Shown piece after piece: positions 25,626-53,519 of a stretch of 64,000 nucleotides of DNA (position 1 is its first letter; every line of letters starts with the position of its first letter). Origin of the DNA: Deltaproteobacteria bacterium HGW-Deltaproteobacteria-2 (GTDB lineage: Bacteria; Desulfobacterota; Syntrophia; Syntrophales; Smithellaceae). Where the stretch lies: positions 131,767-195,766 of the forward strand of contig PHBC01000001.1 of assembly GCA_002840505.1 (NCBI GenBank), read 5' to 3'. The position numbers and the translations under genes were made by a program. The notes under the pieces were generated by a model, which did no database searches, was not told the DNA's origin, and saw nothing but the letters and a program-made list of their open reading frames with translations.

Positions 25626-25679
25626 CTTGGATAATTGTTCTGTTTCTGAACAATATATCAAAAAAAACAGGCACGAGAG

Positions 25680-26060
25680 AAGATCGTAAGCCGAGTCCTG
25701 TCCCACGATTAGGTTACCCTGCACGTGGTGATGATCATTCATCTGGGACGTGAGTTGCCTCACGCCTCTAGCGACACTACCCGAGAACATCGGGCGGGCC
25801 GCCCTTAACGTTCTCCTATTTGGTCTTGCTCCGGATGGGGTTTACCATGCCTTTCCTGTCGCCAGGAAAGCGGTGAGCTCTTACCTCGCCTTTTCACCCT
25901 TACCTGGCGAAAACGCCAAGCGGTATATTTTCTGTGGCACTTTCCTTAGGGTCGCCCCCAGTCGCCGTTAGCGACCATCCTGCCCTGTGGAGCTCGGACT
26001 TTCCTCCTTTATCCTTCTTTCAAGACATGTTCTTTATAAATAATCCAGCTCTGAATAATA
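25680..26060 (-). ncRNA. rnpB: RNase P RNA, bacterial type A (both ends approximate)
   Basis: The reverse strand carries the universal blocks GGAGGAAAGTCCGAGCTCC (P4 5' strand), GGTAAGGGTGAAAAGG...GGTAAGAGCTCACC, CCGGAGCAAGACCAAATAGG, AGATGAATGAT and ACAGGACTCGGCTTA (P4 3' strand), in the canonical order. I could not resolve P1-P3 by eye, so the 5' boundary is a guess. Confidence 0.85.
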
Positions 26061-35250: not shown

Positions 35251-35694
35251 TTAATCCGACTTAAAAAATCCAACCGATTTTAAAGCATTAATAGTATTTA
35301 TTGCCACCGGCAATTCCCGTAAATCTTTCAGAGAAAACCAGCGGGCCTCCAGTGCGTCATCCGCACCATGGGGAACACCTGCAACATAATCAGCAGCGAA
35401 ATCAACTATAACAAAATGAAACTTAATTTTTCTTTTGCTGTCGTATTCGATGAAATCAAACACGTATTTGCAGTCCCTGACTTTTATCGTTATGCCTGTC
35501 TCTTCGAAAATTTCCCGCGCGGCACATTCCTGCATACTCTCACCAAGTTTCAACGTTCCTCCGGGAATTGCCCAAAGTCCTTTACTCGGTTCTGTCCCAC
35601 GTTTTACTAACAAAACTTTCCCATCTCTTATTGTTATCGCCCCGACTCCGACCCTTGGTTCAACAGGATAAGCATTACTTGACTTCTTTTTCAT
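35251..35694 (-). CDS. NUDIX hydrolase
   Basis: Nudix box GGTLKLGESMQECAAREIFEETGI. Confidence 0.8.
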   Translation of the reverse strand: MKKKSSNAYPVEPRVGVGAITIRDGKVLLVKRGTEPSKGLWAIPGGTLKLGESMQECAAREIFEETGITIKVRDCKYVFDFIEYDSKRKIKFHFVIVDFAADYVAGVPHGADDALEARWFSLKDLRELPVAINTINALKSVGFFKSD

Positions 35695-36461
35695 TTTTTT
35701 CCCGACACGAAAGAAAAGCTGCTTTCGATCCAGGGCTCCTTTTGTCCATCAAAAACTTTCTCCACAAACCTGACACGCCTGTTTTTTCCGATAAGTAAAA
35801 TCGTGGAAGAACGGGTCCCATAATCAGGACTTGTAATAAACATGGAAGATAATATCCGCTCCCATTCCAGACCAACACCTGTTGAGGGTAGTTTACTGTC
35901 CGGCGGAATATGGCGATCAGCCAGCACAGTAAATAATGTTTTTTTTAATTCAGATCGTTTTTGATCCAGTGTAGATTTCAAAAGACGTTTCCCCCGAGAT
36001 ACTTTCGGCCAGGGTGTATTCAGGTTATGATTGCTTAAACCATAGATCCCTGGATTCAGCTTTTGTTTTTCTCCGTTACTGGAGAAAACGAAAAGATCAT
36101 TATCATCACCTATAAGTAAATTGAAACCGTTGTACTTATCCGCTTGCGAGGAAACGTCTTCCAGATACCCAGCGGCGTTTTGTTTACCAATAAGGTAGCG
36201 GCTGACCAGTCTGCCGCGCGACGGAGCATTGCTTTTAAAAGCGGACGGATCGCGATAATTAGTGATGGCGGCGAATTTTCCTTCTTTGGTAATACCCAAC
36301 CAGGTGCCGCCCTCTTTTAAGTCTCGCCCGGCAAGCACATTATGTTGGTCTTCCCAAAAATCCGCAGGGAGCGACGGCCGTTCATAAAACTCATCACGGT
36401 TAGCCGCAAGGATTAACCGGTATGATGGATGAACTTTATAAGCAAATAATATAAGGCACAT
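35691..36461 (-). CDS. NRDE-family (TANGO2-like) protein
   Basis: N-terminal MCLILFAY...LAANRDEFYERP signature. Confidence 0.8.
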   Translation of the reverse strand: MCLILFAYKVHPSYRLILAANRDEFYERPSLPADFWEDQHNVLAGRDLKEGGTWLGITKEGKFAAITNYRDPSAFKSNAPSRGRLVSRYLIGKQNAAGYLEDVSSQADKYNGFNLLIGDDNDLFVFSSNGEKQKLNPGIYGLSNHNLNTPWPKVSRGKRLLKSTLDQKRSELKKTLFTVLADRHIPPDSKLPSTGVGLEWERILSSMFITSPDYGTRSSTILLIGKNRRVRFVEKVFDGQKEPWIESSFSFVSGKK

Positions 36462-36607: not shown

Positions 36608-37375
36608 TCATTTCATTATTTCTTTCAATCTGGCTACAATTCTGTCCATTGTATCTCCTGCCGGCGCGTTTAGAAATACATCGGCTATATCATCCTGACC
36701 GGTCTGGCCCATATTAATGATGACAATCTTCGCGCCGGATTGCTTGGCATAAATCGGTATATAGGCAGCAGGATAAACAACCAGTGAAGAACCTATCACC
36801 ATTAATAAATCACATTGCTCTGATTCTCTCTCGGCTATCCTTAATGTATCCTGCGGAAGCATTTCGCCAAAGAAGACGACGCCCGGCTTCAGAATACCTT
36901 TGCATTTTTCACATACCGGAAAATGATCGGGCGATGGATGTTTTTGTCTTATAAGTTCCAAATCATAACGTTCACCGCAATCGAGACAAACCAGCCATTC
37001 CATATTGCCGTGCAGTTCGTGAACTTTTTTCGGATTATTTCCTGCCTTCTGGTGCAGATTATCAATATTCTGCGTAATGACGGAACTTAGTTTGTTCATT
37101 TTTTCCAGTTCGGCTATTGCCAAATGAGCCCTATTGGGCTGGGCATTAATCATCAATCCGCCTTCCACAAGGTAGTACCAGACTTTTGTACGTGTCTCGC
37201 CGGAATTAAGAAACCTGTCAATTGTAAAATCATTGGGATCAACTTTAGTCCAGAGTCCGTCCGGGCCGCGGAAATCCGGTATACCTGATTCCGTGCTAAT
37301 GCCCGCTCCGGTAAAAACTACCAACTTTTTCGATGCCGCAATCATTTGAGCGACTTTATTTATCTTTGCTTCCAT
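36608..37375 (-). CDS. cobB: NAD-dependent protein deacylase (Sir2/CobB)
   Basis: GAGISTESGIPDFRG, QNIDNLH, HG, and the Zn ribbon CLDCG...CEKCKG. It overlaps the tyrA 3' end. Confidence 0.85.
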   Translation of the reverse strand: MEAKINKVAQMIAASKKLVVFTGAGISTESGIPDFRGPDGLWTKVDPNDFTIDRFLNSGETRTKVWYYLVEGGLMINAQPNRAHLAIAELEKMNKLSSVITQNIDNLHQKAGNNPKKVHELHGNMEWLVCLDCGERYDLELIRQKHPSPDHFPVCEKCKGILKPGVVFFGEMLPQDTLRIAERESEQCDLLMVIGSSLVVYPAAYIPIYAKQSGAKIVIINMGQTGQDDIADVFLNAPAGDTMDRIVARLKEIMK

Positions 37376-38144
37376 ATAATTTTTCTGCCGTTTTTTTGAT
37401 TGCTTTTTTAGATTCAGTTTTATTGCCGGATTTAATTTTTGATCTGATATCTTTTAGCGCTTGTTCGTAGATATCCAGCATTTTACCGGTTTGCGGATTT
37501 CCCGTTATTATATCAAGGTACAGTTCAGGACTTTCCACGAAAACTTTTCTGATAATGTCCAACTTTGTCCGAAAAATAGGTGTAGAAAATTTGTTTACAT
37601 CCGCAAGAGTAACATTCGTCCGGGCAAGAGCCATTCCCAGGGTAATGGTGTTAAAATGATTGAGCGCTTGAATAACAGCCATCATTTTATCATGCTTTTC
37701 GGGAGTTGCTTCCCAGACAGCCAGTTTATTTTTTTTAAATACAGCTTTGAGCCAGTTCAACCACTTTTTCCCGCGTGCCGGACACAAAATAACATTCTGA
37801 CCGGAGGAATCTTTCACTTGAGGTCCGAAAAGAGGATGACAACCGATAACCTCCGCCTGAGAATTAGCCAGCATCATTTTAACCGGTTCTTTTTTCAGCG
37901 AAGTTAGATCCATCAGAAGCATATCTTTGTTTAACATCGGGCCGACTTTTCTGATTATATCGGCAGTGGCGGAAATAGGCACGGCCACAACTATTACCTC
38001 ACAAAGTTTGGCTAAATCGCTTATACCCAGCTTGGTTTTTCTGCCGCAAACATGGACGGTGTAACTTTCTTTTTTGAGCAAGCCGGCAAACCATTTTCCC
38101 ATGCCGTTGGTGCCGCCGATTATCCCCACTTTAATATTTTTCAT
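37356..38144 (-). CDS. tyrA: Prephenate dehydrogenase
   Basis: N-terminal Rossmann fold IIGGTNGMGKWF, HPLFGP, and operon context. Confidence 0.8.
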   Translation of the reverse strand: MKNIKVGIIGGTNGMGKWFAGLLKKESYTVHVCGRKTKLGISDLAKLCEVIVVAVPISATADIIRKVGPMLNKDMLLMDLTSLKKEPVKMMLANSQAEVIGCHPLFGPQVKDSSGQNVILCPARGKKWLNWLKAVFKKNKLAVWEATPEKHDKMMAVIQALNHFNTITLGMALARTNVTLADVNKFSTPIFRTKLDIIRKVFVESPELYLDIITGNPQTGKMLDIYEQALKDIRSKIKSGNKTESKKAIKKTAEKLYGSKDK

Positions 38145-39223
38145 TCGCTTATCGCTTTCTGCCTTAGTAAATGATCTGCCAGAACAATGTTCACCATCGC
38201 TTCACAAACCGGCACAATCCTGGGCAAAACGCAAATATCATGTCTTCCCTGAATTTCGATTATTCTTTCTTTTCCTCTGCAATCTATAGTGTGTTGCGGT
38301 TTCGCTATGGAAGGAATCGGTTTACAATAAGCCCTCAGCACAATTTTTTCGCCATTTGTTATGCCCGCGAGTATTCCTCCCGCATGATTTGTTTTAAATC
38401 CTTTTTTATTCATCTGATCATTGACTTCCGAGCCCATTCTGCCAGCGACTTCCATGCCATCGCCAATTTCCACCGCTTTCACCGAACCGATGCTCATCAG
38501 AGCTTTGGCCAGATCCGCATCCATCTTATCAAAGACCGGCTCCCCTAGACCTGCTGTACAGCCACTGGCGACAATTTCCACTACTCCGCCCAGCGAATCC
38601 CCTTTTTTACGAACTACCGCAATCTTTTTTTCCATTGCCGCTGCAGCCTGTGCATCCGGGCAGAAAAGAGAATTCCCCAGCACAGATTTTCTTAAATTTT
38701 TATCTGACGGCATCCTGCCGCGGTCAATTTCGATTGCGCCGATTGCCTGTGTGTAAGCTATGACATCAATGCCTGATTGGACAATTACCTTTGCGGCAAT
38801 TGCTCCCGCAGCTACACGGGCAGCCGTTTCTCTGCCGGAAGCGCGTCCTCCACCCCGCCAGTCGCGGATTCCATATTTATTCAAATAGGTAAAGTCTCCC
38901 TGACCCGGACGGAACACATCTTTTAATTCATCGTAAGAAGACGATTTCGCGTCAACGTTTCTAATGATTAACGAAACAGGGGTGCCTGTTGTTTTGCCCT
39001 CGAAAACACCAGAGAGAATTTCAACCTTGTCACCCTCTTTCCTTGTCGTGGAGGAAACCGAGCCGGAAGGCTTTCTTCTATCCAGTGCCTGCTGAATATC
39101 GGATTCATTCAAAGACAGCCCTGCCGGACAGCCATCCACAACCGCTCCCAGCGCCGCCCCATGCGATTCTCCCCAGGTGGTTACGCGAAAAATACTACCT
39201 ATGGTATTACCAGCCATGAACAC
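38141..39223 (-). CDS. aroC: Chorismate synthase
   Basis: TWGESHG, GRxSxRETA-type block (GRASGRETAARV) and typical length. Confidence 0.9.
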   Translation of the reverse strand: MFMAGNTIGSIFRVTTWGESHGAALGAVVDGCPAGLSLNESDIQQALDRRKPSGSVSSTTRKEGDKVEILSGVFEGKTTGTPVSLIIRNVDAKSSSYDELKDVFRPGQGDFTYLNKYGIRDWRGGGRASGRETAARVAAGAIAAKVIVQSGIDVIAYTQAIGAIEIDRGRMPSDKNLRKSVLGNSLFCPDAQAAAAMEKKIAVVRKKGDSLGGVVEIVASGCTAGLGEPVFDKMDADLAKALMSIGSVKAVEIGDGMEVAGRMGSEVNDQMNKKGFKTNHAGGILAGITNGEKIVLRAYCKPIPSIAKPQHTIDCRGKERIIEIQGRHDICVLPRIVPVCEAMVNIVLADHLLRQKAISE

Positions 39224-39230
39224 TCCCTAT

Positions 39231-39347
39231 CATTCCTAAATCAAAGCGCTATCTTTGTTGGCTTCGTCGTCGGCATCCTCAACGTATGTACAATACGTCT
39301 CGTCGCCTCCTCCTTGCCGCCTCGATATCATCTCTGATTTAGAAACG
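39231..39347 (-). repeat. 117-bp MITE-like element (copy B, inverted relative to copy A)
   Basis: It exactly fills the aroK-aroC intergenic gap. See 36488-36605. Confidence 0.75.
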
Positions 39348-39350
39348 ATA

Positions 39351-39896
39351 TTACTTTTTATTTATTTTATCCAAATTTCCCGATTTACGCAAATACTGAT
39401 AAATTTCTTCGGCAACTTGTATAGCTTTTTTACCTGTTGTATCCACAATATAATCAGCGGCTCCTTCATATAAAGGAAGCCTTTGCTTCATGACATCGAC
39501 AGTCTCCTCAGCAATATTTCCAGTTGTAAACTGCGGTCTTATAGCCTTGCTCTGCGCATCTTTGCTGAGCCGCTTGACAATATCCGGCACGGGAGCATTA
39601 AGCCAGATTATTACACTTGTCTGCTTTAAAAGATTTACATTCTCCTGGTCCAAAACTACTCCACCACCCGTAGCAATAATAGCCGATTTTTTTTTCGTCA
39701 GAGTTTTAATTGTCTCTTTTTCTTTGATGCGAAAATAATCCCACCCATGAAGCGCAACAATTTCTCTAATCGGCATCGCCATTTTCTTTTCCACCAGCAA
39801 ATCGGTATCACAAAAAGCAATTTTCAGCTTAGTGGAAAGAATTTTGCCTACTGTGGATTTTCCTGTTGCCCGATAACCGATTAAGACAACATTCAT
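39351..39896 (-). CDS. aroK: Shikimate kinase
   Basis: LIGYRATGKSTVG P-loop and 181-aa length. Confidence 0.85.
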   Translation of the reverse strand: MNVVLIGYRATGKSTVGKILSTKLKIAFCDTDLLVEKKMAMPIREIVALHGWDYFRIKEKETIKTLTKKKSAIIATGGGVVLDQENVNLLKQTSVIIWLNAPVPDIVKRLSKDAQSKAIRPQFTTGNIAEETVDVMKQRLPLYEGAADYIVDTTGKKAIQVAEEIYQYLRKSGNLDKINKK

Positions 39897-41149
39897 ATTT
39901 TTCTCAATTCCTCCCAGAAAGTGGGAAACGATTTATCAACACATTTTTTATCGCTGATTTCAATGCCGCTGGCGACAAGACCGGCAATGGCAAAGCTCAT
40001 GGCCATACGATGGTCGTTATAGGTTTCAATTTTTGCCGGTCGCATTTTTCCACCCTGAATCACAAGTCCATCCGGCATTTCCCTTGCTTCAATACCTGTA
40101 CGGTTCAATTCGGTAACCAGAGCTGCCAGACGGTTGCTTTCTTTTATTCTCAAATGCGCTACATTGCTTATAACCGTTCGGCCTTTACGGAAAGCGGCCA
40201 GCACAGCCAAAGTAGGCACCATATCCGGCATATCGTTCAGGTCGAAAGTAAAATCACCTTCCGCCAGATTATTGCCGGATACTTCTACCCAACTTTCTTC
40301 TGATTTTACCTTGCAGCCCAATTCTTCCAAAACACTCAGCAAGTGCATATCTCCCTGCTTGCTTTGCCGGTTGATCCCCGTAACTCTGACTGTTTTTCTT
40401 AAAAGCATCGCAGCCAGAAAAAAATAGGAAGCACTGGAAGCATCTCCTTCAACGAGATATTTGCGTCCCTGATAAATTTCGCCGGCCGTAACATGATATT
40501 CATACTTTCCTGTTTGGGTAATCTCAGCGCCGAAATCTTTCATCACGGCAATAGTCAGATCTATGTAAGGAGTAGAAACAACGCCTCCCTGCAAAGTTAA
40601 ATCCATGCCTTTTTTCGTGTAGGGCGCGCAAAGAAGCAGCGCTGACACGTATTGTGAGCTTTCAATATTCTGAAGGGTTATCTTTCCTCCCTTCAGGCCG
40701 TTGGCATTTATTTGAACCGGCGGGCAATTTCCCCGGGTAAGTATATCAACACCCATTTCTTTTAACGCATCCGCCAGAGCGCCTACCGGCCTTTCACAAA
40801 GCCGCTTTTCACCGGTCAGAACGTATTTGCCGCTGCCCAGACAGACCAGTGCCGTAAGAAATCGCAACGCGGTGCCGTTATTTCCCAAAAATAATTCTTT
40901 ACCTGTGTTTATTATTTTACCGGCTGTACCGGAAATATTAAAACCGTCCTCCATGGACACAATTTGCGCACCCAATGTTTGCAATCCTTCAATCAGATAT
41001 GTTGTGTCCTGGGAAACAAGAGCATTGCTGATGAAAGAATTATTCTGCGCCAAAGCGGCAGCCACCAGTGCCCGCTGGGTCAGGCTCTTGGAACCGGGCA
41101 CATGAATAGTCGCAGATACTTCTTCAAAATGAACGTCTTTATTATTCAA
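39893..41149 (-). CDS. aroA: 3-phosphoshikimate 1-carboxyvinyltransferase (EPSP synthase)
   Basis: PGSKSLTQR, LGNNGTALRFL and NDHRMAMSFA motifs. Confidence 0.9.
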   Translation of the reverse strand: MNNKDVHFEEVSATIHVPGSKSLTQRALVAAALAQNNSFISNALVSQDTTYLIEGLQTLGAQIVSMEDGFNISGTAGKIINTGKELFLGNNGTALRFLTALVCLGSGKYVLTGEKRLCERPVGALADALKEMGVDILTRGNCPPVQINANGLKGGKITLQNIESSQYVSALLLCAPYTKKGMDLTLQGGVVSTPYIDLTIAVMKDFGAEITQTGKYEYHVTAGEIYQGRKYLVEGDASSASYFFLAAMLLRKTVRVTGINRQSKQGDMHLLSVLEELGCKVKSEESWVEVSGNNLAEGDFTFDLNDMPDMVPTLAVLAAFRKGRTVISNVAHLRIKESNRLAALVTELNRTGIEAREMPDGLVIQGGKMRPAKIETYNDHRMAMSFAIAGLVASGIEISDKKCVDKSFPTFWEELRKI

Positions 41150-42710
41150 CTTGAGTCAACCTTTCTAATATTGTTTTTTTCATCAAAGCTCGTGGCGGTT
41201 CTTTGCCCGTCCATAGTCGTAATTGCTCTGCTCCCTGGTTTACAAACATGTCCAAACCGGAAATAATACCGCATCCTTGCTTTTGCGCATCCTTAAGTAA
41301 TTTTGTCTTTATCGGATTGTATATAACATCCACCACATATTTATAATTACTCAGAATAGCAGCTTTCACCGGCGATTTATCCTTAGGATACATGCCTACA
41401 GGAGTTGTATTGATCAGGCAGTCAGCTTTGATTTTGCCGATTTCGGCAAGGGAATAAAACGGACAGTTCAATTTGCGGGAAAGAATTTCTCCCTTTTTCA
41501 ACGTGCGATTAACAATCATCGGGAATCCGCCTTCTTTTATTATTCCATAAGCTGCCGCCCGCGCTGTTCCGCCCGCACCAATAATTACAAAAGTTTTATT
41601 TTTAATCGGCATTGCTTCCCGGATTGTAACAATAAGTCCCAACCAGTCGGTATTGTAACCGATCAGGCAACCATGATGATTGATAATTGTGTTCACAGCT
41701 CCGATTTTCAGCGCGTCATCGTCAACATCATCCAGGTATTCCATAACAGCAACCTTAAAAGGAATGGTGATGCTGGCGCCACAAATATTCATTGCCCTCA
41801 TACCCTGTATCGCGCCCCTTAAATCGTGAACACAAAAAGCGCTGTAGTTTCCTTCAACACTCATTTTTTTTAACGCAGCATTATGCATGATCGGCGAGAG
41901 ACTTTGCCCCACCGGATTGCCCAGCAGAATATAATGCTGAGGTTGAAATGTTTGTTTAGGTAAAGCCATCTCTGAAGATAAAGCTTCTTTGTCTTTAAAT
42001 AGTTCATTAATTTGTTTCATCCCGCCAACAGTAAACTGTCCCGGCGCAGACTGCCCTTCTTGTTTTAATGCGGCAAAACTCAAATAATTCCCCAAAAAAG
42101 GAGCTATGGCACGACTGATGCCGCCTTTGTCTCCCATGCACAAAGAAATTATTTTTTGAGAACGCTCTTTAGCGTAAGAAATTAAACTCAGCGTTATCAG
42201 ATTATCTTCAGCAGTCTTCGCTGTAGTAACTATTTTTACAATAGCCGGTTTAAACTGCACGCTTTGATAAAATATCTTTTTTAATTTTGTCAGCGAGGGA
42301 GTCTCTTTAAGATTATGGTAGGAAATAATGATTTTTGTTTTTCCCCCGTGTTTTGAACAAAAAGACTGCAGATCTTTAATTACCGCAAGTCCTTTCGCGA
42401 GCTCGATATCCACGAAATCAGCACCCAACTCGATTGCTTCTTTGAGCAGTGCTATTTTTTCTTCTGTACATCTTACATAACTTTTTGAGAGCATCGCTCT
42501 TCCGGCAGAAGCTGCTTCTTCTTTTTCCCTGCAAGTAACAATTATTTTAACCGAATCGGAATTGTTGCGGGCAATTGAAATAAATTCCTCAAGCCTTCCG
42601 CCATTGATCAAATCCATTCTCAGTTCGATAAAATCGGCAAACTGACAACTTCTTTCAATACTATGCAAAGCTTCTTTTTTTGTTCTGGCTGTAATGGGAA
42701 CACAAATCAT
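41142..42710 (-). CDS. aroDE: Bifunctional type I 3-dehydroquinate dehydratase / shikimate dehydrogenase
   Basis: The N-terminal half has the type I DHQase pattern (IELRMD, ISYHN). The C-terminal half has GNPVGQSLSPIMHNAA, NTDW and GAGGTARA. Confidence 0.85.
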   Translation of the reverse strand: MICVPITARTKKEALHSIERSCQFADFIELRMDLINGGRLEEFISIARNNSDSVKIIVTCREKEEAASAGRAMLSKSYVRCTEEKIALLKEAIELGADFVDIELAKGLAVIKDLQSFCSKHGGKTKIIISYHNLKETPSLTKLKKIFYQSVQFKPAIVKIVTTAKTAEDNLITLSLISYAKERSQKIISLCMGDKGGISRAIAPFLGNYLSFAALKQEGQSAPGQFTVGGMKQINELFKDKEALSSEMALPKQTFQPQHYILLGNPVGQSLSPIMHNAALKKMSVEGNYSAFCVHDLRGAIQGMRAMNICGASITIPFKVAVMEYLDDVDDDALKIGAVNTIINHHGCLIGYNTDWLGLIVTIREAMPIKNKTFVIIGAGGTARAAAYGIIKEGGFPMIVNRTLKKGEILSRKLNCPFYSLAEIGKIKADCLINTTPVGMYPKDKSPVKAAILSNYKYVVDVIYNPIKTKLLKDAQKQGCGIISGLDMFVNQGAEQLRLWTGKEPPRALMKKTILERLTQVE

Positions 42711-43783
42711 AATATGCCTTCCATTTTCGGATAGGATCCCAATATCTTGAGAAAAGTTGTTTTCCCCTCCAATTCTTCCAGGCAGCTGTTCACCTGCCTA
42801 TCTGTTATGTGACCGATAATGTCCACGAAAAAGCTGTATTCCCACAATTTCTCCTTTACAGGGTGCGATTCTATTTTTGCCAAATTAATTTTTCGCCGGG
42901 CAAAGGACGACAGTGCCCGATGAAGAGAACCCGGTGAATGCGGTGTGGCAAAAATCAAAGAGGTCTTATCATTGCCTGTCGCGGCATTTTCTCCTCTACC
43001 TATAACCAAAAATCGTGTCGTGTTGGAAGAATTATCTTCAATGCCTTCAGCAAGTATATTCAATCCGTAAATATGGGCGGCAAGCAAACTGCCTATAGCC
43101 GCTTCATTCTTTTTACCCCGCACCATCTGAACAGCGGCGGTTGTGCTTTCTGTTTCACCCAGTATACAATTGGGCAAATTGGTTTTTAGCCATATCTGAC
43201 ATTGCGCTAATGGCTGAGGATGAGAATAAATTTTTTTGATGTCTTTCATACTTTCGGCCGAAGAAATAAGACACTGGCTGATCCGTAAAAAAATCTCCGC
43301 TCTGATTTTCAGTGATGTTGTAATCAGATGGTCAAGCGTAATATTCACCGATCCTTCCAGCGAATTTTCCACTGGAACAACACCCCAATCTACAGAACCT
43401 TTTTCGACTTCATCGAACACACGATCAATTCTAGGCTGAGGGAAATAATGGCTGGACTCACCAAAATTTAAACGTGCCGCTTGATGTGTAAAAGAAGCTT
43501 CGGCTCCGAAAAAAGCGACCGTCGTCGGTTTTTGCAGACTGCGCGATGCGGAAATAATTTCCCGAAAAATCGATGTTACCGCCTCACTCGGCAGAGGACC
43601 TGAATTTAATTCCTGCAAATATCTGTGAACCTTTGCTTCCTGCGCAGGGTCATATACGTCAATACCGCCTTCACCTTTAACCTTACCGATCTGGACGGAT
43701 ATTTGCGCCCGTTCATTCAACAAACGGATAATCTCCCGATCTTTTTCTTTCATGTTTTCCCTTAACGTTTCCAGCAGTCTCAT
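42707..43783 (-). CDS. pheA: Chorismate mutase / prephenate dehydratase (P-protein)
   Basis: An N-terminal CM helix region (REIIRLLNERAQISVQIGKVK) is followed by PDT (VAFFGAEASFTHQAA, TRFLVIG) and a C-terminal ACT domain. Confidence 0.85.
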   Translation of the reverse strand: MRLLETLRENMKEKDREIIRLLNERAQISVQIGKVKGEGGIDVYDPAQEAKVHRYLQELNSGPLPSEAVTSIFREIISASRSLQKPTTVAFFGAEASFTHQAARLNFGESSHYFPQPRIDRVFDEVEKGSVDWGVVPVENSLEGSVNITLDHLITTSLKIRAEIFLRISQCLISSAESMKDIKKIYSHPQPLAQCQIWLKTNLPNCILGETESTTAAVQMVRGKKNEAAIGSLLAAHIYGLNILAEGIEDNSSNTTRFLVIGRGENAATGNDKTSLIFATPHSPGSLHRALSSFARRKINLAKIESHPVKEKLWEYSFFVDIIGHITDRQVNSCLEELEGKTTFLKILGSYPKMEGIL

Positions 43784-44874
43784 TCTTTCATCTCCTCAAT
43801 CACTGCGGTAATCATTTCTGGTTTAATACTTCCAATAATAAAAGGCATTCCTATTTTCTTTAACAAAACAAAACGGATAATGTCACCTTTTTTCTTTTTA
43901 TCCATTTGCAAAGCAGCAATAATATTATCAGCAAAAAAAGTCTCCGGTATTTTCCAGGGCAAACCTGCTTCGCGGATAAGCGTTTCGATGCGTTTAGCTT
44001 CATTGCTTTCCAGGTAGCTCATTTTTTCGGAAAGACGCGCCGCCGCGATCATCCCTAAAGCAACACCTTCGCCATGCGTTATTGTATACTGGGACATTGT
44101 TTCCAGAGCGTGTCCCAATGTGTGGCCAAAATTAAGAATATGCCGTAGACCTTGATCTTTTTCATCAATTTCGACAATTGATTTTTTAATGCGGCAACAT
44201 GCTTCCACTATATTCAGCACAAGTTTCGGATCTTTTAATTTTATCGCTTCCATGTTGTTTTCCATGGTATGAAACATTTTTTCATCATCAATGATGCCGT
44301 ATTTGATAATTTCCGAGAGCCCGTTATTAAATTCTTTTTCCGGCAGCGTTTCTAAAAAGCTCAAATCCGTAAAAACAGCGCATGGTTGATAAAATGTCCC
44401 CAGCAGATTTTTCCCGTGGGTAAGATCAACGGCTGTTTTTCCACCTATACTGCTGTCCACTTGTGCAACCAGCGTTGTGGGAATCTGAATATAAGGCACA
44501 GAACGCATAAAAACAGAGGCGATAAAACCGGTAACGTCGCCTACAACTCCACCGCCTAAAGCAAGTAGAAGAGTCTCACGATCAGCTCCTAATTGCAGTA
44601 ATTTCCCTGCAATATCCAGCACAGTACTGATATTCTTGGAAGCTTCGCCTGCGGGGAATTCTATTAAATTTACATTTAATCCGACATCTTCTAAACCGGC
44701 AAGGAACTTTTTACCGTAAAGACTGCCGACACAATCGTCAGTAATCACCACATAACGCTCCGCTTTATGGTTTTTGGCAATAATCAGCGCCATTCTGTCG
44801 ATTATATCTTTACCGATACGAATTTCATAAGATGATCGAATTTTCTTATCGAGATTAACTTTTATTGTTCGCAT
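43780..44874 (-). CDS. aroB: 3-dehydroquinate synthase
   Basis: GGGVVGDVTGF, the metal ligands HTLGHALE..HGEGVALG and typical length. Confidence 0.9.
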   Translation of the reverse strand: MRTIKVNLDKKIRSSYEIRIGKDIIDRMALIIAKNHKAERYVVITDDCVGSLYGKKFLAGLEDVGLNVNLIEFPAGEASKNISTVLDIAGKLLQLGADRETLLLALGGGVVGDVTGFIASVFMRSVPYIQIPTTLVAQVDSSIGGKTAVDLTHGKNLLGTFYQPCAVFTDLSFLETLPEKEFNNGLSEIIKYGIIDDEKMFHTMENNMEAIKLKDPKLVLNIVEACCRIKKSIVEIDEKDQGLRHILNFGHTLGHALETMSQYTITHGEGVALGMIAAARLSEKMSYLESNEAKRIETLIREAGLPWKIPETFFADNIIAALQMDKKKKGDIIRFVLLKKIGMPFIIGSIKPEMITAVIEEMKE

Positions 44875-44932
44875 ATATTCATTCCTTTTTCTTCTTCAAA
44901 GCATCATTACATAAGACATAAAATCAAGACTA

Positions 44933-44961
44933 GTATTAGACTCAACTTTTGCAAAAGTCAA
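44933..44961 (-). promoter_or_regulatory. Possible internal sigma-70 promoter between aroF and aroB
   Basis: The minus strand reads TTGACT-17 nt-TAATAC, preceded by the hairpin CCGCCA-T-TGGCGG (44967-44979). Confidence 0.3.
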
Positions 44962-45005
44962 TTGAACCGCCATTGGCGGAAATCGACATCTGCCAGGTCA
45001 CGTGA

Positions 45006-46016
45006 TTAATGTTTCATTACCGCGGCAATCGCTCTTAACTCATCCATTAGTTGATAAAACTTCTCCGGTTTCAGCGACTGCGCTCCATCGGAAACGGCTT
45101 TTTCCGGTTCCGGGTGAACTTCCACGATAAGACCATCGGCGCCAACAGCAACCGCCGCGCAGGACAACGGGATCACATATTTCCAATGACCGGCAGCATG
45201 ACTTGGATCAACAATAACCGGCAGATGAGTCAAACTTTTTAATACCGGAACAGCGCTTAGATCCAAAGTGTTTCTTGTGGCCGTTTCAAAAGTTCGGATA
45301 CCACGTTCGCAAAGAACCACATGGGGATTACCCGATGAAAGGATATATTCCGCCGACATCAGCAGCTCTTCGATGGTGGTCATCATGCCTCTTTTTAAAA
45401 GTACCGGCTTTTTCGAACGGCCGACTTCTTTGAGCAGGGCAAAATTCTGGACATTACGCGCACCGATTTGCAGCATGTCGGCATAAGATTCCACAAGATC
45501 AACATCAGCGGGATTGACCACTTCCGTAACCGTCGGTAGATTTGTTCGCGCGCTAACCTGATTTAATACCTTTAAGCCTTCTTTTTCCATACCCTGGAAG
45601 CTATATGGAGAAGTGCGCGGTTTGTAGGCGCCGCCTCTAAGAATCTGGGCGCCACCCTTTTTGGCGATATAGGCGCTTTCTAATAATTGTTCTTCGCTTT
45701 CAATCGCACATGGACCGGCAATTACAACGAAGTCCGGACCGCCGATTTTGATTGAACCTACCGAAACCACAGTATTACCTTCGTGCGATTCGCGACTGGC
45801 CAGCTTGTAGGGTTTTAAAATCGGCATGGTTTTTTCTACCCCCGGCAAAGACTCCGCGTACTTAAGGATTCCCTTGTCGCGATTGTCACCGACTGCCCCG
45901 ATAATTGTCCGTTCAACACCGATTGAAGGATGCGCTTTATATCCGACAGATTCAATCCAGCGAATCACATCTTCAATTTGCTTTTCTGTAGCCTGATTTT
46001 TCATTACAATGATCAT
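45006..46016 (-). CDS. aroF: DAHP synthase, type I-beta with an N-terminal ferredoxin-like regulatory domain (Thermotoga type)
   Basis: The extra N-terminal domain is about 70 aa. The catalytic core has [18 protein letters not shown] and DPSH motifs. The RBS is GGAGGGAG. Confidence 0.85.
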
Positions 46017-46033
46017 TCTTTCTCCCTCCTGAA

Positions 46034-46067
46034 TTAAAAAAGGCCAGGGCTTTTGCTGCCATGGCCT
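46034..46067 (-). terminator. Leader hairpin 2 with U-tract (proximal to aroF)
   Basis: The minus strand reads AGGCCATGGC-agcaaaa-GCCCTGGCCT (9 of 10 bp) followed by UUUUUU. It ends about 20 nt before the aroF RBS. Confidence 0.6.
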
Positions 46068-46111
46068 AAAAAAAGAAAAGCCATGGGAGCTCTTTCGATC
46101 TGCCCATGGCT
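46068..46111 (-). terminator. Leader hairpin 1 with U-tract
   Basis: The minus strand reads AGCCATGGG-15 nt-CCCATGGCT (9 bp perfect; the loop can extend the stem to a GAAA cap), followed by UUUCUUUUUUU. Confidence 0.6.
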
Positions 46112-46129
46112 GTTTTGGTTTATTTTAAC

Positions 46130-46228
46130 CTAACAAGTCATCCTTAGCGACGGACAGACCGATGCAAAATAGGTATAAAACCAATAATAATAAGCATTGT
46201 TGTTTGCAGTCAGTTTTCTGTCCATCAT
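46130..46228 (-). CDS. Putative aro-operon leader peptide, 32 aa, with a Tyr/Trp/Phe codon run
   Basis: My own translation gives MMDRKLTANNNAYYYWFYTYFASVCPSLRMTC. GAGGA lies 10 nt upstream. The ORF sits between a consensus-like promoter and two terminator hairpins. Confidence 0.6.
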   Translation of the reverse strand: MMDRKLTANNNAYYYWFYTYFASVCPSLRMTC

Positions 46229-46254
46229 GAAAAACTTATCCTCTATTTGGAGGC

Positions 46255-46283
46255 CATATAATCAAACTGAAGATATTTGTCAA
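46255..46283 (-). promoter_or_regulatory. Sigma-70-type promoter of the aro supraoperon leader
   Basis: The minus strand reads TTGACA (46283-46278), a 17-nt spacer, then TATATG (46260-46255). Confidence 0.6.
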
Positions 46284-46404
46284 GAGAAAACTTAAGCAGT
46301 GTCAATTTATCACTTTGGCAAAGAAACAAAATGTTCTATTCCCTTCTGCATAGCCGAATCCGGCAACCGTTTGACATTTATTAAAAAATAAGAGAAGAAT
46401 CCTT

Positions 46405-48294
46405 ATGCACAAAAGTAAGACAAAGGCAACGACAACTACCCAATCAGTCAATGACGCGATTAATCCTCAGGACAATCGTTTCTCAATAATGTCTTCTTTC
46501 TTTGCCTTCTCGGGGAAATTGGCTTCTTCCAGTTATCTAAAGTGGACATTGATAATGCTTCTGCCAGTCCTGATTCTGCTGAGATATCCTGTCGACCGGA
46601 TAGATTACGACTTGTGGTGGCAAATGACGCTCGGCAAATATTATCTGACTCACCACACTCTTATTATAGACCATTCTATTTTTTCCTGGACACCTGCCGA
46701 TCCGACCTGGGTTTATAACACATGCCTGGGAAGTATTGTTATTTATCTGGCTTACAGTCTCATGGGAGGGTTTGGTTTGTGGATCTTCCAATGTCTGATA
46801 TTCTTGGGAGTTTTTCTTTCATTTTATATTTTTCTACGCCTGATTCGCCGACGGCTTGATGTAACCAGCATCACCATCATTGCCGCCATTGGTATTGCCA
46901 GCTCCCTCTCCTGCAGTTACTACAAACCTGAATTGTTTTCCGTTCTCCTATTTTGCTGGATAATATTTATCTTTTTTTATGTCAAACTGACTCGTCAAAC
47001 GTTTCTTTTTTATCTTTATCCATTGATTTTTGCCCTCTGGACTAATTTGCACGGCGCTTTCATCCTGGGATTCGGTGTGTTTGCCTGCTTTTTCATAGGT
47101 GAACTTTTAAACAGAATTTTTTTACCTGAAGAAGCATTTACTATTAAAGAACTGACCAATCTCGGCGCCGCAATTGCTCTGTCTTTGGCTGCAACTTTGC
47201 TGAATCCTTATGGCATCAATTACCTATTGAGCATTTATAATGCAATAACTTCCGAGGCCTATAACATAACCAGTACGCATATTCAGGCCTATGTAAGCCT
47301 CTGGCCATATTTAAAAGATATGGATATTTCATTCTTCAGATTGGGACAAACTGCCTGGATCATGACCCTAATGATGTTTTTGATGGGCTGCCTTTTTCTT
47401 TATGAACTTATCAAAAAGAGATCCTGTGATTTTACTTTGCTGATTTTAAATATCGTCTTATACTGGGCAAGCATGAGAGCCACCAGGGCGAGTTACCTTT
47501 TCCCCTTCGGCTTTTTTTTCTCATTCTTCTACCTGCTCAACCGTTTGAAATTAAAAAATGTTTCCGGCAGGGCAACCATTTTGTCTTTGCTCATTTTCTT
47601 TTTCTTTTTTATCAACATCACCTATTTCACTTTCAGATACAATACGGACAACAAATGGTTCGGTGCCGGTCTCGACAATTTCGTACCGGCCAAGGAAGTA
47701 GCTTTTTTGAAAAAATATCGGTTAGAAGGCCCTATCTTTAACGACTATGTTATCGGCGGCTATCTGATATGGGATCTCTATCCCGATTACAAAATTTTTA
47801 TTGATCCTCGTTTTATGCCGTTCAGTAAACAAGTTGCTGCCGATTACTGGGCCTTTACCGGCAATCCCGTAACCAGTGAAACTCTACAACATTTTAATAA
47901 AAAGTATCCTTTCAAAATCGCAATAATCCATTACCGGGAACTTCCCTTAATTTTCGATTTTCTGAGAGCCGGAGGCGAATGGCGGCTTTTATACTTTGAA
48001 CAAAATGCCGCTATATTGATTCACAAATCACTGCTTTCCACCATTCCGCCGGAAATCAGCTCAGTTGATCTTGGTCCATCGCGCTTCCAAGACGTCAGCA
48101 ATCCGGAGGTTCTTCTTAATGTATTCACCTTGTACGTTAATCTGGATCCGAATGCCGGAAGGGTCATCTACGATATCTATGAAAAGAATATCAGTGATTG
48201 TTACAAGCTAAAAAAAGATCACCTGCAAACGATGAAAGACGATATTCGGCAGAAGGAACATGAGCTTCAATTCATGACCAACGGGCAGAGATGA
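46405..48294 (+). CDS. Polytopic membrane protein (GT-C/ArnT-like fold suspected)
   Basis: More than 10 hydrophobic helices in the first 400 aa or so, then a soluble C-terminal domain. The family assignment is tentative. Confidence 0.5.
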   Translation: MHKSKTKATTTTQSVNDAINPQDNRFSIMSSFFAFSGKLASSSYLKWTLIMLLPVLILLRYPVDRIDYDLWWQMTLGKYYLTHHTLIIDHSIFSWTPADPTWVYNTCLGSIVIYLAYSLMGGFGLWIFQCLIFLGVFLSFYIFLRLIRRRLDVTSITIIAAIGIASSLSCSYYKPELFSVLLFCWIIFIFFYVKLTRQTFLFYLYPLIFALWTNLHGAFILGFGVFACFFIGELLNRIFLPEEAFTIKELTNLGAAIALSLAATLLNPYGINYLLSIYNAITSEAYNITSTHIQAYVSLWPYLKDMDISFFRLGQTAWIMTLMMFLMGCLFLYELIKKRSCDFTLLILNIVLYWASMRATRASYLFPFGFFFSFFYLLNRLKLKNVSGRATILSLLIFFFFFINITYFTFRYNTDNKWFGAGLDNFVPAKEVAFLKKYRLEGPIFNDYVIGGYLIWDLYPDYKIFIDPRFMPFSKQVAADYWAFTGNPVTSETLQHFNKKYPFKIAIIHYRELPLIFDFLRAGGEWRLLYFEQNAAILIHKSLLSTIPPEISSVDLGPSRFQDVSNPEVLLNVFTLYVNLDPNAGRVIYDIYEKNISDCYKLKKDHLQTMKDDIRQKEHELQFMTNGQR

Positions 48295-53446: not shown

Positions 53447-53519
<73 letters not shown>

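Follow-up and report, generated by a model that had tools for sequence, protein, structure and literature searches.

In the trpL, pheL and hisL leaders of Escherichia coli and Salmonella a short translated open reading frame (ORF) contains a cluster of codons for the product of the pathway, and a stalled ribosome decides which RNA structure is formed. The leader of the his operon is built, in its own lettering, as a chain in which the hairpins A:B, C:D and E:F alternate with B:C and D:E. Leader ORFs with aromatic codons have also been described before aroF, the gene for 3-deoxy-D-arabinoheptulosonate 7-phosphate (DAHP) synthase. The aroR leader of Corynebacterium glutamicum, which contains Phe-Tyr-Phe, attenuates the aroF operon; only Phe limitation was reported to act on this leader, which contains no Trp codon (Neshat et al. 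2014; PMC11802643). The uORFC-13-1 motif of Acholeplasma, a predicted upstream ORF with a terminator that is reported to occur only before aroF, was proposed to sense the speed at which aromatic (Phe) codons are translated (Brewer et al. 2021; PMC8632094). The subject of this report is the region directly before aroF (minus strand, 46283-46017) in a 64,000-nucleotide (nt) stretch of DNA, hereafter the window, from a Smithella (Syntrophales) genome (GenBank assembly GCA_002840505.1, contig PHBC01000001.1, positions 131,767 to 195,766). Comparison with related sequences indicates, with a probability of about 0.75, that this region is a ribosome-mediated transcription attenuator of the aroF-aroB-pheA-aroDE-aroA-aroK-aroC-tyrA(-cobB) operon. 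The mechanism would be that of classical attenuation, whereas the design, in which two terminators are linked by a relay, appears to be new and to belong to a modular family that has not been described. Compared by description, aroR is from a different phylum and has three aromatic codons only; uORFC-13-1, also compared by description, is a Phe-based element of Mollicutes with a single terminator stem and, like the Smithella leader, a bioinformatic prediction. Given the different phyla, an independent origin from both seems likely. An earlier note on this DNA, made from the sequence alone, knew of no mixed Tyr/Trp/Phe leader for a common-pathway operon in this kind of organism. This holds for Smithella, Syntrophus and the delta-proteobacteria, in which a literature search found no such element described, although aromatic aroF leaders are known elsewhere.

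Sequence reading of the region identified a promoter, a leader ORF of 31 or 32 codons and two hairpins with U-runs, in the following arrangement.

46255-46283, minus strand: promoter, TTGACA at 46283-46278, 17-nt spacer, TATATG at 46260-46255
46239-46243, minus strand: GAGGA, Shine-Dalgarno (SD)-like sequence of the leader ORF, from sequence reading
46130-46228, minus strand: leader ORF, 32 codons from 46228 or 31 from the ATG at 46225, stop codon TAG at 46132-46130
46166-46192, minus strand (read 46192-46166): putative regulatory codon block YYYWFYTYF, codons 13-21, with 5 Tyr, 1 Trp and 2 Phe codons
46068-46110, minus strand: terminator 1 (D:E), hairpin at 46110-46080 and U-tract UUUUCUUUUUUU at 46079-46068
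46036-46067, minus strand: terminator 2 (F:G), hairpin at 46067-46041 and U-tract to 46036
46030-46025, minus strand: ribosome-binding site (RBS) AGGAGG of aroF, with the aroF start codon at 46016
45006-46030, minus strand: aroF (DAHP synthase; NCBIfam NF006421, 511 bits), predicted to be the first gene controlled

The earlier note had reported the same promoter, a 32-codon ORF preceded by GAGGA, and eight aromatic codons (5 Tyr, 1 Trp, 2 Phe) among nine consecutive ones, and sequence reading bears all three out. It had placed the second hairpin about 20 nt before the RBS of aroF; the actual distance is ~10 nt. The product of the leader ORF in the window is MMDRKLTANNNAYYYWFYTYFASVCPSLRMTC.

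The arrangement is conserved well beyond the window. A search with AroF in one-genome-per-species contigs gave 80 loci from metagenome-assembled genomes of Smithella, Smithellaceae or 'Syntrophaceae' (84-98% identity), from which 70 distinct leader sequences were aligned (alignment A1; counts out of 70 below refer to it). The leader is found upstream of the aroF orthologs, where the earlier note had proposed to look, in 76 of the 80 loci, the other four being cut by contig ends, which places the arrangement far beyond chance; the hairpin arms carry compensatory changes. A simple motif search recovered the small ORF, with the consensus MDRKLNANxNfYGYWFYTYFasVCpSLRRTc, before aroF in 71 loci, and it is also present in L035. 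In the other four of these 76 (L036, L038, L041 and L080) a complete leader lies ~1.1 kb upstream and is followed by an HMGL-like gene and then by aroF, a position that would bring the intervening gene under the same attenuator. This gene encodes 321 amino acids (aa; Pfam PF00682; L036:1505-2470) and occupies the same place in L038, L041 and L080. The TTGACA hexamer is invariant in the aligned relatives except L005, and the −10 element is TATAnn or TAAGTA. All matches listed in the AroF protein search had at least 79% identity, and the range was extended by three look-ups and by a metagenome DNA-pattern scan described below. Three loci of greater divergence, with 79-82% AroF identity, retain both hairpins and the promoter and have an aromatic leader such as MDRMNGSGIITSYYFWNYYYFPLVCPSLRRN, and in lineages with AroF down to ~67% identity the peptides differ yet are still aromatic (SYWRFGFYYY, GFWFSYYYFY, YFGYFWYF). 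The conservation of ORF, frame and promoter strongly supports the proposal, already made in the earlier note, that a translated aromatic leader controls premature termination before aroF. Locus L005 (2260-2300) is the only one with a damaged leader start: ATGGACAG has turned into ATGACAG and unrelated sequence stands in place of the TTGACA promoter, a state that may reflect misassembly or a genuine loss of regulation.

The pattern of variation within the leader suggests that its N-terminal and aromatic part is maintained as a translated frame and its 3′ part as RNA. Indels upstream of or within the aromatic block are +3, −3 or −6, and thus keep the frame, and the flanking aromatic positions interchange TAT, TAC, TTT and TTC. 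In four genomes a +1 insertion right after the block converts the peptide to ...YFCIGLPVDEEDLLR, with the nucleotides still conserved and with termination at nearly the same stop position. At the protein level, the C-terminal half of the peptide shows no conservation. The start codon is ATG in 67 and GTG in two of the 70 leaders; the conserved start corresponds to the second ATG (46225), which gives 31 codons in 58/70, and in relatives GGA(C/T)AGG is located 9-13 nt upstream of it. Aromatic codons fill eight of the nine positions of the block in the window, seven or eight in relatives, and six in L045 and L079. The number of Tyr codons per leader is 3-5 and that of Phe codons 2-4; one or two Trp codons are present in 69/70, L059 being without Trp. 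The central TGG-TTT-TAT is fixed at the nucleotide level in at least 68/70. The stop codon is separated from the stem of terminator 1 by 19-20 nt in 55/70, so that a terminating ribosome can sit clear of hairpin 1. A further conserved stretch lies close to the stop codon: in columns 101-109 of A1 (window 46145-46137) relatives have a near-invariant GAGGAGGAC, an SD-like GGAGG that ends 6 nt before the leader stop, and the window clade has GGATGAC in its place. No pairing partner or role was found for GAGGAGGAC, which might hold the terminating ribosome in place.

The earlier note had proposed RNA folding to find the alternative structures of the leader. Folding RNA truncated before the 3′ arm of hairpin 1 revealed a long helix that the note had missed, in which segment B, within the 3′ half of the leader ORF, pairs with segment D, the 5′ arm and loop of terminator 1. 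In the minimum free energy (MFE) structure of the full-length leader, B is instead paired with segment Z in a long hairpin, P1, which places the aromatic codons in its apical loop.

46205-46225, minus strand: segment Z (AUGGACAGA...), start region, codons 2-8, 5′ strand of P1, pairs with 46166-46150
46146-46162, minus strand: segment B (UCGGUCUGUCCGU), leader codons 23-28, predicted 5′ strand of the antiterminator and 3′ strand of P1
46095-46111, minus strand: segment D (AUGGGCAGAUCGA), 5′ arm and loop of terminator 1, predicted to pair with B in read-through or with E in termination

As B:D uses D it excludes terminator 1, and it is therefore the predicted antiterminator. Over 13 pairs and 70 sequences B:D is paired in 97.8% of cells, against 33-42% in controls with slid partners. 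Eight of its pairs vary on one side only and one runs CG/UG/UA; in L080 a pair that is invariant elsewhere shows a double change from G-C to A-U. RNAalifold, run unguided, recovered B:D with three additional pairs, and also hairpin 2 and the inner portion of P1. The inner helix of P1 has three compensatory pairs (UA42/CG22, CG55/UA15 and AU63/GC5), and none of 500 shuffles reached the observed covariation; the outer helix is 85% paired. The compensatory changes in P1 alter amino acids (Ala to Val or Thr), indicating that the RNA is what is selected. The conserved pairings P1, B:D, D:E and F:G are mutually exclusive; all but B:D show compensatory changes, and the changes in B:D are wobble-compatible.

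The position of the ribosome fits the exposure of B. When the Trp codon occupies the A site, the front edge of the ribosome is ~7 nt short of B, and folding the RNA from this edge as far as the loop of D yields B:D in the MFE structure of 70/70 leaders (mean 12.5 of 13 pairs). The mean stability of the B:D duplex is −18.4 kcal/mol, compared with −17.4 kcal/mol for terminator 1, and a direct-path estimate of the refolding barrier from B:D to terminator 1 is ~20 kcal/mol; once formed, the antiterminator should thus outlast the passage of the polymerase. In equilibrium folding of the window sequence with a ribosome mask, terminator 1 always wins once E is present. The switch must then be kinetic, as in trp, and this result is not evidence against it. 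Two other candidates were rejected. A local hairpin between B and the downstream GGAUGAC is confined to the window clade and is not conserved. A second small ORF from the AUG in CCAUGGG is without an SD sequence, its Phe codons are merely the U-tract, and its frame is not conserved because the loop of terminator 1 varies in length by non-multiples of three.

The two hairpins had been correctly recognised in the earlier note, together with the hexamer CCATGG in three of their four arms; in most relatives it is present in all four. Hairpin 1 folded alone has a free energy of −19.4 kcal/mol (z −4.6) and its U-tract has 11 U in 12 nt. Its pairing is kept in 91% of cells, with compensatory changes from UA to CG (four sequences) and from AU to GC (one sequence), and 7-8 T occur within 9 nt after the stem in 54/70. 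Hairpin 2 folded alone reaches −15.2 kcal/mol in the window, where it is followed by a U6 run, and has a mean of −18.7 kcal/mol. It is 98.7% paired, with compensatory change at three pairs (for example UA52/GC11) and 6-8 T within 8 nt after the stem in 68/70. Terminator 2 is ~25 nt from the aroF start codon, leaving no room for a promoter between them; being strong and too close to aroF for another promoter, it must be bypassed somehow. A simple terminator and promoter scan listed neither hairpin and missed the promoter. The terminators escape it since their loops (14 nt in hairpin 1 and, as the scan allows no mismatch, 9 nt in hairpin 2) are above its 8-nt limit, and the promoter because its −10 ends in G. 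Four loci (L007, L018, L021 and L067) have ~100 nt inserted between terminator 2 and the aroF RBS. The insert in the first three includes a hairpin, GGGTATC...GATACCC, and that in L067 is a different sequence; the inserted DNA might represent a small mobile repeat or an additional regulatory element. Two genomes (L057, L064) and one metagenome locus (L175) have TTAAAAAAGTATGA where hairpin 1 is otherwise followed by its U-tract, with hairpin, B, leader and terminator 2 intact, such that the leader can act only through hairpin 2.

These elements can be assembled into a model in which six segments, in the order Z, B, D, E, F and G, would each pair with the next. The complementarity for the whole chain (Z:B, B:D, D:E, E:F and F:G) is present, the remaining link being provided by two arms of the terminators.

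46079-46086, minus strand: segment E (CCAUGGCU), 3′ arm of terminator 1, complementary to F
46059-46066, minus strand: segment F (GGCCAUGG), 5′ arm of terminator 2, complementary to E

When charged Tyr-, Trp- and Phe-tRNA are plentiful the ribosome would reach the stop codon. Segment B would then lie within or just behind the ribosome and would re-pair with Z in P1 (in untranslated RNA it would stay on Z), D:E would form, and RNA polymerase would stop at the first U-tract, any escapers meeting F:G and the second U-tract. When any one of the three charged tRNAs is scarce, the ribosome would stall within about the first six aromatic codons, an event that would break P1 and leave B exposed ~20 nt downstream. 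B would capture D as it emerges, and E, left without a partner, would pair with F, which is made before G; terminator 2 would thereby also be prevented and transcription would enter aroF. Stalling is presumed to occur on all three kinds of codon.

Compared with trpL, pheL and hisL, whose pairings 1:2, 2:3 and 3:4 are equivalent to P1, B:D and D:E, the Smithella leader reads three amino acids, has two terminators in series and shows no similarity to these leaders in Rfam. Its regulatory codons are in the loop of P1, not in a strand, and a ribosome at the stop codon leaves the antiterminator strand uncovered. With the his leader it would share a chain of more than four segments, each able to pair with either neighbour, through which a choice made by the ribosome at the 5′ end would be passed to the 3′ terminator; it differs in that the middle hairpin, D:E, has its own U-tract and is a terminator, the arms share CCAUGG, and the codons are mixed aromatic with no His run. 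The literature search found no description of a leader-peptide attenuator with two chained terminators. Chaining two terminators through palindromes should tighten the OFF state without losing the ON state, and the leader would show that an uncultivated syntrophic degrader of alkanes and fatty acids tunes the common aromatic pathway by one RNA switch responding to three amino acids.

A scan of metagenomes with the DNA pattern GGTCTGCC...GCCATGGG...CCATGG matched at least 120 loci. Of the 120 matches listed, ~40 were set aside as chance matches in GC-rich coding DNA, and the remainder have the build of the same attenuator, in the following classes.

Class I, at least about 50 loci: mixed Tyr/Trp/Phe leader, including the distant lineages ..SYWRFGFYYYGAQVCPS.. 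and ..GFWFSYYYFYGQVCPSLRRT, before aroF
Class IIa: ..NWWCW.. leader before a trpD-type gene (anthranilate phosphoribosyltransferase; Pfam Glycos_transf_3 and its N-domain)
Class IIb: ..GWWWW.. leader before an outer-membrane Phenol_MetA_deg family gene
Class III: Phe/Tyr-rich leader, with GGTCTGCC read in another frame, before a gene for a ~525-aa GNAT-domain protein

The TTGACA hexamer also heads the trpD, outer-membrane-protein and distant aroF leaders, as well as three of the four GNAT leaders compared. Among the matches listed, W-only leaders stand before trpD and mixed Tyr/Trp/Phe leaders only before aroF. This tracking of the operon by codon content, on a constant platform, is the best argument for sensing of all three common-pathway products by the mixed leader. 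On balance, these data tip towards the view that the aroF leader belongs to a paralogous, modular attenuator family in Syntrophales-like bacteria, whose specificity has been reprogrammed through the leader codons. The shared platform would consist of GGUCUGCC and two CCAUGG-palindrome hairpins, with one stall silencing two terminators via the relay; mixed aromatic codons would serve the shikimate pathway, Trp runs trpD and the outer-membrane channel gene, and Phe/Tyr codons the GNAT gene. If this is true, it would be the first described leader-peptide scaffold to have radiated across operons as T-boxes do, including non-biosynthetic targets; no single leader-peptide scaffold common to several operons was found described in the literature search. 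The occurrence of the scaffold with Trp-only or Phe/Tyr leaders would provide a natural series relating codon content to attenuator specificity, and points to unannotated regulatory ORFs of ~30 codons and to the Phenol_MetA_deg and 525-aa GNAT proteins as new members of an aromatic amino acid regulon. As the elements are absent from Rfam 15, they are missed by standard annotation.

The classes show some further features. The trpD class (L088, L105, L144 (L144:130-470), L154, L159, L164, L174, L178 and L201) has leaders such as ..NWWCWEKK.. and ..NWRRWRKN.. and an inter-hairpin spacer of ~40 nt with an extra small hairpin. The outer-membrane class (L090, L111, L120, L130, L155, L191 and probably L161) has leaders with three or four Trp codons, for example MAGQAHKNIFGWWWWANISAGVCPS, before a gene for a ~300-aa signal-peptide protein of the Phenol_MetA_deg family, which may be a tryptophan-regulated uptake channel; these contigs are GC-richer and are thus probably from other lineages. 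The GNAT class comprises L099, L110, L169, L170 and L189, and also L122 and L158, with leaders such as MKRRVQIRFFSVGFFYFSTGSAHLRQITWK.

The part of the attenuation model that is most open to challenge is the second terminator. The earlier note had suggested that the 3′ arm of hairpin 1 pairs with the 5′ arm of hairpin 2 and so dissolves both terminators. The pairing itself, E:F, can be drawn and is paired in 97.5% of cells in the 70 aroF sequences, but it cannot dissolve terminator 1 alone and is plausible only as the second link of the chain, in which it would relay the decision to terminator 2. Alternatively, attenuation could act on terminator 1 only, terminator 2 being an unregulated second or duplicated copy and E:F a by-product of the CCATGG palindrome. 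Several observations that weigh against a relay would be explained in this way. No compensatory change in E:F was seen in the 70 aroF sequences; a clade of 11 has a central A x G mismatch; the pairing is weakened in the outer-membrane-protein class; terminator 2 beats E:F at equilibrium in 51/70; and the barrier from the 8-bp E:F helix to terminator 2 averages ~6 kcal/mol (10.3 in the window), so that the relay could be too short-lived in many genomes. An unregulated terminator 2 with a mean stability of −18.7 kcal/mol and 6-8 U would, however, throttle an essential pathway, and relatives without a U-tract on hairpin 1 still keep the leader, B and D:E. When D is sequestered E:F is the equilibrium fold in 19/70 leaders, the window included. 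In all four operon classes the E:F duplex has a stability of ~−17 kcal/mol (z ~−3 to −5 against shuffled F arms), and it exceeds hairpin 2 in stability in the trpD class (−17 versus −14.5 kcal/mol). Substitutions in the F arm from C to U and from A to G retain E:F by wobble, the G arm compensating within hairpin 2, and changes in F are biased towards this E:F-keeping type, with the outer-membrane-protein class and one aroF clade as exceptions. Hairpin 1 never carries a U-tract in the GNAT class, where 0-3 T occur in 9 nt, and hairpin 2 is the only terminator; the leader would there act only via E:F on hairpin 2, a design that closely matches the his leader. Regulation confined to terminator 1 is thus judged unlikely, and a relay through E:F is preferred.

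Other points weigh against attenuation as modelled here, independently of the relay. A ribosome stalled on the last two aromatic codons would mask B, so the productive sensors would be the first six or so, which include all three amino acids in nearly every leader. At the stop codon B is just behind the ribosome and not under it, so that the OFF state would depend on timing and on P1 re-forming. The invariant TGG may reflect RNA pairing instead of Trp sensing, and as this pairing (A:C) could by itself fix the codon, its invariance is not on its own proof that Trp is sensed. Co-transcription of the whole operon is deduced from its layout, which two gaps of ~130 nt interrupt. Three further explanations were considered. 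The small ORF could be untranslated and the region a ligand- or protein-binding RNA such as a riboswitch, a T-box or a TRAP-like target, a reading that would account for the long stretches of nucleotide-level conservation, which extend to third codon positions in B and to the TGGTTTTAT core. It is very improbable: Rfam 15 searched over 44500-47500 with E-values up to 10 gave no leader, T-box or riboswitch, only two spurious weak matches; the 3n indels keep the aromatic frame; start codon and SD sequence are conserved; the flanking codons show Tyr/Phe and synonymous swaps; and codon content follows the operon (W-only before trpD, mixed before aroF), unlike a fixed ligand pocket. A TRAP-type site consists of 9-11 (G/U)AG repeats, and the two GAG triplets present are far from this. 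The near-invariance of the W-F-Y core in the Smithellaceae set might suggest a TnaC-like arrest peptide, one responding in the ribosome tunnel to free aromatic amino acids and not to tRNA charging. This too is scarcely credible, as the logic would be wrong for a biosynthetic operon, which abundance would induce; distant aroF leaders have quite different aromatic sequences, the frameshifted variants indicate that the peptide after the block is dispensable, and the terminators are intrinsic, not Rho-dependent. Finally, the strong promoter, two efficient-looking terminators and conserved ~200-nt RNA might mean that the terminated transcript is itself the product, acting as a small RNA in trans or giving a hydrophobic micropeptide, and lies before aroF only incidentally. 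There is little to recommend this proposal, given that the leader always heads the operon, even with the HMGL-like gene before aroF, that aroF has no separate promoter, that codon content is matched to the pathway and that protein-level conservation is absent from the C-terminal half of the peptide. Ribosome-mediated attenuation remains the preferred explanation.

The A:C pairing had been pointed out in the earlier note, which paired the Trp-Phe codons UUGGUUU plus ACCUA with a segment spanning the leader stop codon.

46115-46132, minus strand: segment C (UAGGU...AAACCAA), partner of the Trp-Phe codons at 46184-46171

The complementarity is conserved in the Smithellaceae core, where UGGUUU/AAACCA is 87% paired, but both sides are almost invariant, without covariation, and the pairing is missing in L081 and in the distant aroF leaders. 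It may be a lineage-specific helper in the Smithellaceae core, and would explain the near-absence of synonymous change in TGG-TTT-TAT.

The genes downstream of aroF agree with the list from aroF to cobB given in the earlier note, each being identified by NCBIfam.

36608-44874, minus strand: aroB, pheA, aroDE, aroA, aroK, aroC, tyrA and cobB (NCBIfam matches)

The pheA product is a chorismate mutase-prephenate dehydratase (CM-PDT) and aroDE is a fusion of aroD and aroE. Most junctions are overlaps of 4-20 nt, and from these overlaps all nine ORFs are presumed to be on one transcript. The two gaps of ~130 nt are between aroF and aroB (45005-44875, minus strand) and between aroK and aroC (39350-39224, minus strand); no convincing terminator was seen in either, and internal promoters are possible in both. 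The aroF-aroB gap contains a weak hairpin, CCGCCAATGGCGG, and a promoter-like TTGACT-18-AATACT. A TANGO2-family gene (Pfam PF05742, E-value 7e-79) lies at 35691-36461 on the minus strand, 146 nt after cobB. Divergent from the leader promoter is a 629-aa ORF (46405-48294, plus strand) with no NCBIfam or Pfam match. Over the whole window Rfam 15, at its gathering threshold, returned only RNase P RNA (class A, 25675-26021, minus strand, 283 bits) and a tRNA gene (53447-53519, plus strand).

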